A stretch of DNA of 64,000 bases from the NCBI RefSeq assembly GCF_003334305.1, contig NZ_QOWS01000018.1; one strand, written 5' to 3'. The notes beneath the pieces are model-generated. The model did not search any database. It saw only the letters and a list, made by a program, of their open reading frames with translations, and was not told the DNA's origin. This DNA comes from Escherichia coli (lineage in GTDB: Bacteria > Pseudomonadota > Gammaproteobacteria > Enterobacterales > Enterobacteriaceae). Below, one piece after another: positions 60,641 through 61,176 of this stretch. The position numbers and the translations under genes are program-made. The first letter of the stretch is position 1; each line of letters starts with the position of its first letter.

Positions 60641-61176
60641 AAGCGAAGCGCCCCTCTTAGTATATTTCTTAATCGTCTCTTTAGCATTTAGTGCTTTTTG
60701 TTAAGTTTAGCACTTTTTGCTAAAGACAAAACACTTGACAAAATGGTAAGATTGTTCACATGACCTTACTTAACAGATTCTTAAGAGCTTTGAAACGAAC
60801 TGTTTAACAAGGTCACTACCTCTGGTCTTATCGTTCCCTCTCTTCTTGGTAGTTCTGTTAAGTATCTTTTCAGGTATCTCTTACAGTCACTGTTAAGATA
60901 GAACCTACCTTCGGTTTCATGGTTCTCTTCCTCCCGTTAAATATCCCTTCACAGTCAGACTAAATAACACCTCTGTAGTTTCTTGGTAGAATCTTTCAAG
61001 GTAACTTAACTCTGAGTTTATGAAGTTGACCTTAGTCAATGTTTGTGAAGGTGTTACAGAGCATGTTCTCTAGGTCTGTGTAGCTCACTAAGCGAGAGAG
61101 GGGATATGTGACCATAGGGGAACCCCTCCTGTTAAAAGTTTCTTGATGTTATCATCACAATATGTATAATCACCAA

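Follow-up and report, generated by a model that had tools for sequence, protein, structure and literature searches.

Positions 60641 to 61142 of the 64,000-nucleotide Escherichia coli sequence analyzed here ("the window" is this whole stretch of DNA) lie in the right part of an integrative island inserted in wrbA. They hold a conserved non-coding module of an element that excises, and the module probably acts in cis. Most of the stretch, as sequence comparison shows, is a divergent version of the interior of the direct terminal repeat (DTR) found in Felix O1-like lytic phages (Ounavirinae). The conserved unit, referred to as module B in subsequent discussion, is best described as a constrained, helper-derived copy of the DTR interior. 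It may serve as the cis site where the DNA-maturation proteins of a helper phage engage island DNA. This is the reading that we prefer, with a confidence that falls somewhat short of even. A first-pass annotation made from the sequence had proposed a replication origin, a partition site, or an array of binding sites; a handle for processing by a phage is more likely than a plasmid-type origin or partition site.

A first blastn comparison of the wider region with phage genomes matched only Felix O1-like phages, at a neighboring G-rich element. With sensitive settings, blastn aligned window positions 60744 to 60861 with positions 49777 to 49667 of phage garuso (70% identity over 120 nt; E value, 4e-9), and nhmmer also matched module B to garuso (E value, 6e-6). 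The match to the locus of Salmonella phage UAB_69 (E value, 6e-11) falls inside the annotated DTR. The match covers positions 250 to 372 of the 618-bp UAB_69 repeat, and with allele L004 the colinear match reaches approximately position 565 (nhmmer, query positions 70 to 362). The best conserved core lies at 60806 to 60850 and reads TTAACA.GGTCACTAC..TCTTATCGTTCCCT.TC..TTCTT.GT. Module B alone matched 140 phage records. All of those among the matches listed are coliphages, Salmonella phages, or Shigella phages of Ounavirinae size, and the 140 apparently all belong to the Ounavirinae. The similarity was found in three genera of this group, including Mooglevirus and Suspvirus.

The matched phage region contains the genome ends. 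The annotated 618-bp DTR of UAB_69 maps to garuso 50004 to 49410, and several phage records begin or end inside the region, with that of Ro111lw starting at the equivalent of garuso 49412. The DTR of UAB_Phi87 is 608 bp, as determined by Bal31 digestion and run-off sequencing (PMC4837284), and that of Pr103Blw is 581 bp as determined with PhageTerm (PMC8303462).

The island and phage sequences also share a short motif. The phage DTR region is crowded with CTTAACAG and TCTTAACAA, the reverse complement of CTGTTAAG, and the signature motif of the DTR, YTAACAR, equals CTGTTAAG on the opposite strand. A terminal region of 1.65 kb that is free of open reading frames (ORFs) accounts for 22 of the 62 YTAACAR copies on one strand of garuso, and these are often spaced 11 bp apart. 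This region (garuso 48952 to 50603; L038 3952 to 5603) lies between convergent genes and has more than 20 YTAACAR copies. We found no stated function for the phage array. Module B has 5 YTAACAR copies in 420 bp, compared with 52 in the entire 64-kb window, and its copies are among the invariant columns of the allele alignment.

Three recurring motifs had been singled out in the first-pass annotation, and of these only CTGTTAAG is above chance. It is clearly non-random, with 8 copies in the window versus 1.8 expected, a count reached in none of 100 shuffles, and three of the copies lie inside 130 bp (plus-strand copies at 60855 and 60890, and one in inverted orientation at 60769). TCTTGGTAG is present twice, as stated (60844 and 60981; 0.34 copies expected), but the excess is marginal, with two copies reached in 4 of 100 shuffles. 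The second copy falls in a segment that differs in most alleles and is allele specific, although E. albertii has TTTCTTGGTGG at this place. The two copies of ACAGTCA reflect chance (7 copies in the window versus 6.9 expected). The suggestion of a binding-site array is thus upheld only in part: the motif CTGTTAAG/CTTAACAG fills the terminal repeat of the putative helper, as fits protein binding, but its copies in the island are sparse and unphased.

Module B is widespread and constrained. It is present in 436 of 5,426 complete E. coli genomes, and E. albertii carries a version with 81% identity. Alignment of 24 distinct alleles, drawn from E. coli genomes, 2 IMG/VR contigs, and 19 metagenome contigs, revealed identities of 65 to 100% in a mosaic pattern, with two or three alternative sequences per segment and invariant blocks between them. 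The invariant blocks at the ends are AAAGACAAAA..TTGACAAAATGGTAAGATTGTTCACAT on the left and GTGACCATAGGGGAACCCCTCCT on the right; those between are CTTAACAGA, CTGTTAAGA, CCCGTTAAAC, TGACCTGATA, and TCTCTAGGT. Judged from the alignment, a constrained non-coding element fits this pattern, and a neutral spacer does not. Conservation in related elements had been put forward as a check on the original proposal, and the stretch is indeed kept in other islands, including that of E. albertii; module B is retained in all of the intact islands that were inspected, which cover three integration sites and two species.

Wider searches returned few homologues. Scans of IMG/VR gave only two prophage contigs, and a scan of species-representative genomes found a homologue of module B only in E. 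albertii. The element appears to be restricted to Escherichia, and the power of covariation tests is therefore limited. All homologues have the same orientation relative to their flanks. We rejected the possibility that module B is an invertible switch of the neighboring serine recombinase, because no genome or contig had the inverted orientation; the oppositely oriented recombinase of some islands is a different gene, with 41% identity.

The GGGG-AA-CCCC hairpin reported in the first-pass annotation is real. It lies inside the 23-nt block GTGACCATAGGGGAACCCCTCCT, which is invariant in the 24 alleles, although partly by selection, because the alleles were fetched with a 20-nt pattern from the same block. 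In other island types a different hairpin, GAGGGT/ACCCTC or GATGCTC/GAGCATC, occupies its position.

The stretch does not encode a conserved protein. Its description as free of ORFs was accurate: the only ORF of at least 30 aa is a 40-aa TTG ORF on the minus strand (60917 to 61039), which is lost in other alleles, whose indels are not multiples of three. Two short minus-strand ORFs of 16 and 29 aa with good Shine-Dalgarno sequences were set aside when inspection of the allele alignment indicated that they are not conserved. None of the listed rows for the 436 carrier E. coli genomes has an annotated feature under the stretch. We rejected a coding gene or pseudogene: no reading frame is conserved, the indels shift the frame, and annotation pipelines called no gene.

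The boundaries first assigned to the stretch need one correction. The conserved unit does lie within them, from 60722 to 61142, but positions 60641 to 60721 belong to an optional cassette that carries a Dam-type methyltransferase gene. These leftmost 80 bp or so carry an operator-like palindromic sequence and are probably the promoter and operator of the methyltransferase; in islands without the methyltransferase, homology detected with blastn begins only at 60722. The cassette as a whole (59720 to 60721) is inserted exactly between two conserved non-coding modules.

The foreign block that contains module B sits between wrbA and ymdF. The right part of the island comprises approximately 2.9 kb of mostly non-coding DNA, with a small serine recombinase gene at the right end. 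The same architecture recurs in other strains between tonB and yciI and inside yecE, with the methyltransferase present or absent, and from 436 to 526 of the 5,426 complete E. coli genomes have parts of the island. A circular metagenome contig (L010; 11,233 bp, 14.7x coverage, 55-bp terminal overlap) consists of island sequence only. It joins approximately position 62617 to approximately position 50668 over the core AAAGCAC, and the empty site restores the first codons of wrbA. Excision of the island as a circle follows from this contig and bears out the earlier suggestion of an excising element.

The genes of the island also point to Felix O1-like phages. Its 269-aa "baseplate" protein is 71.6% identical to garuso gp119, which is encoded directly after the tape-measure gene; the tape-measure protein of the island is 33% identical to garuso gp118, and the gene order is the same as in the phage. 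No capsid, terminase, or replication genes were recognized among the island proteins with PHROGs, NCBIfam, PADLOC, or Pfam, and these resources gave nothing usable for the proteins of 236, 184, 118, 93, and 71 aa. With an integrase, circular excision, helper-derived genes and sites, and less than a full set of virion genes, the island has the attributes of a phage satellite, and from its sequence it looks like a satellite of Felix O1-like phages. We found no description of a satellite of these phages in the literature searched.

These findings can be combined in a working model. The large serine recombinase would excise the island as a circle, which would then be amplified during phage infection. 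The YTAACAR copies, the core (GGTCACTAC...TCTTATCGTTCCCT), and the hairpins of module B would be bound by the phage proteins that recognize the DTR, namely, the terminase or its accessory or end-binding proteins. Island DNA would then be cut at terminus-like sites (at approximately 61461 and perhaps approximately 62267) and packaged into particles made by the helper. The homology, the shared motif, the excised circle, and the helper-related tail genes are observations; we infer the binding by phage proteins and the cutting and packaging, as well as a role of the phage motif array in packaging rather than in another end-related function.

Several observations weigh against this model. The motif copies in module B are few, occur in both orientations, and lack the 11-bp phasing. 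One allele class (V2, for example L003) has no detectable similarity to the phages in its first half. In the island the order is interior (60744 to 61100), module C, left boundary (61461), recombinase, and right boundary (62267), which is not the arrangement in the phage, where the interior lies between the left and right boundaries. With the blocks rearranged in this way, module B is 320 to 700 bp outside the putative terminus-to-terminus unit. A 12-kb genome would leave an 86-kb capsid underfilled, and a gene for capsid remodeling was not recognized. Furthermore, an array bound only as double-stranded DNA leaves the compensatory changes in two helices and the three different terminal hairpins unexplained; part of module B may, as the conserved hairpins suggest, act single-stranded, as DNA or RNA. 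We also considered whether the alleles track helper lineages; this was unsupported, since V2 is unmatched in the phage collection and in the Mooglevirus and Suspvirus loci.

The rearrangement of the blocks relative to the phage, the patchy similarity of 60 to 80%, and the allele class without similarity might instead mean that module B has no function and is decaying, having been captured as a piece of phage terminal DNA along with the tail genes. We consider this very unlikely. Blocks are invariant across alleles that are otherwise 65 to 70% identical, hairpins are kept by compensatory change, and intact islands at all three sites and in the second species retain the module. The homology and motif evidence that favors a site for helper proteins would also fit a decoy that titrates or misdirects the end-binding or packaging proteins of the phage, serving defense rather than transfer, and satellites commonly restrict their helpers. 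However, no known defense protein was recognized in the island except an orphan methyltransferase, and a single copy with few motifs would be a weak sponge unless it was amplified. Among the alternatives, we give a decoy the least credence.

In another reading, raised by the conserved base pairing, a structured non-coding RNA of approximately 380 nt would be transcribed rightward from the left block, with module B as its gene or 5' leader. Like the leader-derived RNAs of P4, P1, and N15, such an RNA might act as a regulator, of the island or of the helper, through complementarity of CUUAACAG and CUGUUAAG. We regard this as unlikely, but the evidence on it is mixed. The left block can be read as a weak promoter (AAGACA, an 18-nt spacer, and TGGTAAGAT with an extended -10 element). 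It is absent from the promoter scan because its score of 8 of 12 is under the threshold, and the putative -10 element, TGGTAAGAT, aligns with TGTTAAGAT, a copy of the motif in the phage repeat. No terminator was found at 61100 to 61142. At the two ends, TGTTCAC at 60753 to 60759 and GTGACCA in the right block are complementary and invariant, and different hairpins take the place of the terminal one in other island types. Module B is followed in some islands by a gene on the plus strand, encoding an AP2-domain protein or a recombinase. Abundant non-coding RNAs are made from the large non-coding regions of phage-inducible chromosomal island-like element (PLE) satellites (PMC7567579).

The consensus fold of the alleles was similarly equivocal. 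RNAalifold predicted 54 pairs. In 9 of these both partners have changed, and the 9 cluster in two helices (alignment columns 42-47/126-131 and 160-164/185-189). These helices, 4 and 7, keep their pairing through changes on both sides, with three such pairs in helix 7. The outer stem of the hairpin at 60900 to 60926 varies yet stays complementary (AGAAC/GTTCT, GATAC/GTATC, or GTAAC/GTTAC), and its loop is C(UUCG)G on the plus strand. The garuso counterpart, GCCC-(TTCCCTTTCGGGTTAT)-GGGC, located approximately 250 bp outside the repeat, has a fourth stem around the same loop. Alignment cells with double changes numbered 86, compared with 36.6 +/- 6.6 in shuffles and at most 34 when partners were slid, and the energy of the consensus fold had a z-score of about -6 against column shuffles. 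However, the number of pairs with a double change (9) does not exceed that in shuffles (7.5) significantly, and 113 of 500 shuffles reached 9. The covariation derives from two or three haplotypes, the structure conservation index is 0.23, and z-scores for single sequences are approximately -2 on either strand. The two strands fold alike in the consensus (-22.8 versus -24.1 kcal/mol), with 11 pairs common to both predictions. Assigning the strand by G-U versus A-C pairs was uninformative because the prediction for each strand gathers its own wobble pairs. Nothing in Rfam 15 reached the gathering score, and a permissive search (E values up to 10) gave only a chance miRNA match (E value, 9.5). 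As far as the alignments indicate, some local base pairing is conserved in module B, and neither a compact RNA nor its strand is established.

A further alternative, closer to the initial proposal, is that module B is all or part of the replication origin of the island, operated by replication proteins of the helper or primed by RNA together with module C in the style of ColE1 RNA II or T4 R-loops. The putative promoter of module B, with conserved hairpins after it, would resemble RNA-primed origins. The element excises, with the circle at 14.7x coverage in one metagenome. Module C, immediately downstream, has a strong promoter ahead of a G-rich run and is homologous to two intergenic regions of the phage replication-gene block. 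In PLE satellites, the origin lies within the corresponding large non-coding region (PMC7567579). Nonetheless, an origin in module B is quite unlikely, and neither label proposed at the outset found support. There is no DnaA box (TTATCCACA, with up to one mismatch) from 55311 to 62823. Tandem Repeats Finder detected no tandem iterons of approximately 17 to 22 bp in 60641 to 61142, and a separate repeat search gave only short two-copy families. The GC content is 35 to 39% without a sharp AT-rich dip. No initiator, primase, or helicase was recognized among the island proteins, which include only recombinases, an HNH nuclease, tail proteins, and the methyltransferase, a negative that is not exhaustive because five small proteins remain unrecognized. 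Since there was no match to any plasmid, a plasmid origin was rejected; a partition site is similarly disfavored, with no ParA- or ParB-like gene recognized in the island. The homology of module B is with the phage DNA ends and not with the replication-gene region. Better candidates for an origin lie outside the stretch, in module C and in a pair of direct repeats of approximately 85 bp at 59484 to 59662. These repeats (59484 to 59567 and 59577 to 59662) are about 90% alike, occur in all islands, and are preceded by a block that contains TTGACA; they are candidate iterons or twin small transcription units.

The DNA to the right of module B has additional links to the phage (Table 1). Module C, which had been annotated as a putative small RNA, has a G-rich array of GGT-type repeats approximately 10 nt apart (61213 to 61277), a box, GTAGCCACGTTAAAAATC, and a terminator at 61313 to 61334. 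It is 74 to 79% identical to two intergenic regions of garuso (5652 to 5740 and 4396 to 4481), which adjoin ligase and early or replication genes. Module C could be a helper-responsive promoter or an origin of the R-loop type rather than a small RNA. Farther right, window positions 61163 to 61644 match garuso 50348 to 49823 (E value, 2.8e-10), that is, the outer flank and the first approximately 180 bp of the phage DTR. The equivalent of the left boundary of the DTR is at 61460/61461, where the island has GCTGC|TAAGTACCC and the phage has TCTGC|TTGGTAGCCC. The equivalent of the right boundary, for which the nhmmer evidence is weak, is at approximately 62267.

The gene for the small recombinase is flanked by both boundary-like sequences and occupies the place of the interior of the phage repeat. 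If the boundary-like sites were packaging ends, the recombinase region would be present in two copies on every packaged molecule, and circularization of the Cre/lox kind would be conceivable. Elsewhere, this position is taken by a recombinase of 41% identity on the other strand, by an AP2-domain gene, or by nothing. The variants of this swap site were seen in L034 (4505 to 5029), L035 (4504 to 5028), L004 (4081 to 4650), L007, and L036. The AP2-domain gene is on the plus strand, as is the alternative recombinase, which is followed by a terminator homologous to that of phage gp82. A larger scheme would make the right arm of the island (module B, module C, block X, the recombinase, and block Z) the cis apparatus of a new family of E. 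coli satellites of virulent Felix O1-like phages, in which module B is the recognition array, approximately 61461 and approximately 62267 are the cut sites, and the small recombinase recircularizes injected DNA as Cre/lox does in P1. We consider this scheme rather unlikely.

Table 1. Positions in the window of module B, its parts, and other features of the island
Feature	Position	Strand	Basis and details
Module B, conserved non-coding unit	60722-61142	+	blastn against E. coli genomes; 24 to 26 distinct alleles aligned
Segment homologous to the interior of the Ounavirinae DTR	60744-61100	+	blastn and nhmmer; colinear with approximately DTR 250-565 of 618
Left block, nearly invariant, AAAGACAAAA..TTGACAAAATGGTAAGATTGTTCACAT	60722-60761	+	Alignments
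CTTAACAG motif copy	60769-60776	+	Invariant; orientation is the dominant one in the phage repeat
CTGTTAAG copies in the opposite orientation	60855-60862, 60890-60897		Related copies at 60804 and 61129
Helix 4	60793-60798/60872-60877
Helix 7	60900-60905/60921-60926
Hairpin AGAACC-(TACCTTCGGTTTCAT)-GGTTCT	60900-60926	+	Allele alignment and consensus fold
Right block, ATATGTGACCATAGGGGAACCCCTCCTGTTAAAAG	61104-61142	+	GGGG/CCCC hairpin at 61117-61126
Right edge of the optional Dam-type methyltransferase cassette	60641-60721		Repeat search; nested palindromes TCTTTAGCA...TGCTAAAGA and AGTGCT-N13-AGCACT
Module C (putative small RNA of the first-pass annotation)	61143-61340	+	Promoter TTGATG-16-TATAAT
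Block X, homologous to the flank and first bases of the phage DTR	61341-61515	+	nhmmer
Small serine recombinase, resolvase/invertase type, 183 aa	61542-62093	-	Promoter-like site at 62211-62183
Block Z	62200-62440	+	Weak match to the last approximately 70 bp of the DTR and its outer flank; nhmmer E value 0.0068, colinear with block X
Integrative island, 11.95 kb	50668-62617	.	Annotation; inserted in the 5' end (first codons) of wrbA
Large serine recombinase	50745-52388	+	Left end of the island
Leftward cluster: 269-aa "baseplate" protein, 722-aa tape-measure protein, small unknowns, 95-aa HNH nuclease, 184-aa protein
Dam-type methyltransferase, after approximately 1 kb without annotated genes	59972-60640	-	Annotation

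Other features of the island and window were also recorded. A small ORF on the plus strand at 59151 to 59363, antisense to the leftward operon, encodes 70 aa from the first ATG or approximately 59 aa from MVNLPPEL.... The peptide is strongly hydrophobic and of membrane type, is 85 to 93% conserved among islands, and is annotated in some genomes as a hypothetical protein; it is a possible small toxin or lysis peptide. In E. coli 2013C-4361 (O111 type; L002, 1 to 19000), the right arm of an island at the yciI site adjoins a degraded lambdoid prophage that contains IS1203 copies. That arm comprises modules A, B, and C and the recombinase, and the left part of the island is missing. The only ordinary Rfam matches in the window are the 5' untranslated region of a cspA-type thermoregulator (162.7 bits; 34338 to 34760) and one tRNA with a long variable arm (15438 to 15522).

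If module B does act as a site for helper DNA-maturation proteins, then approximately 8% of complete E. coli genomes would carry a 12-kb element that hijacks lytic Felix O1-like phages, a group in wide use for typing, biocontrol, and therapy. Interference with such phages would be predicted to depend on the strain. The satellite would have copied the terminal-repeat region of its helper, rather than a cos or headful pac signal, and would offer a direct experimental route to the sequences that direct DNA maturation in the 0.6-kb phage repeat. No satellite mimic of exact short-DTR packaging was described in the literature searched.

Module B can be compared with several known systems. Like iteron origins and parS sites, it repeats short motifs within an ORF-free part of a mobile element, but the island has no tandem iterons, DnaA boxes, AT-rich unwinding element, Rep, ParAB, or plasmid homologue. 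The leader RNAs of P4, P1, P7, and N15 (CI and C4 types) likewise combine short direct and inverted repeats in one non-coding region of a satellite or prophage; module B, in contrast, has no Rfam match, including to the C4 family, at permissive thresholds. The island resembles in its layout the PLE of Vibrio cholerae, which has a large serine recombinase integrase, a leftward gene cluster beside a non-coding region of approximately 3 kb, and a lytic myophage helper (PMC7567579). Cis-acting sites and non-coding transcripts are also located in the non-coding region of the PLE. The helper-like tail genes and non-coding blocks of the island, and its lack of capsid, terminase, or recognizable replication genes, add to the resemblance. 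However, the PLE origin repeats are bound by its own initiator, whereas the island lacks a recognized initiator and carries tail genes.

The closest counterparts of module B are the DTRs of the Ounavirinae (UAB_Phi87, 608 bp; UAB_69, 618 bp), with which it shares colinear homology over approximately 120 to 300 nt, the YTAACAR motif, the core, and a related hairpin. Unlike the phage repeats, the island copy spans only approximately positions 250 to 565, stands apart from the boundary-like sequences, has far fewer and unphased motifs, and is located in a chromosomal island rather than at the end of virion DNA.

P4, with a cos site from P2-like phages, and the capsid-forming phage-inducible chromosomal islands, with their cos sites, copy the packaging signal of the helper, and the helper terminase packages the satellite. 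Module B would follow the same logic, in that a maturation signal of the helper would be carried by the satellite. The sites in those systems are the cos or pac sites of temperate helpers, whereas here the signal would be that of a virulent helper with exact short DTRs.

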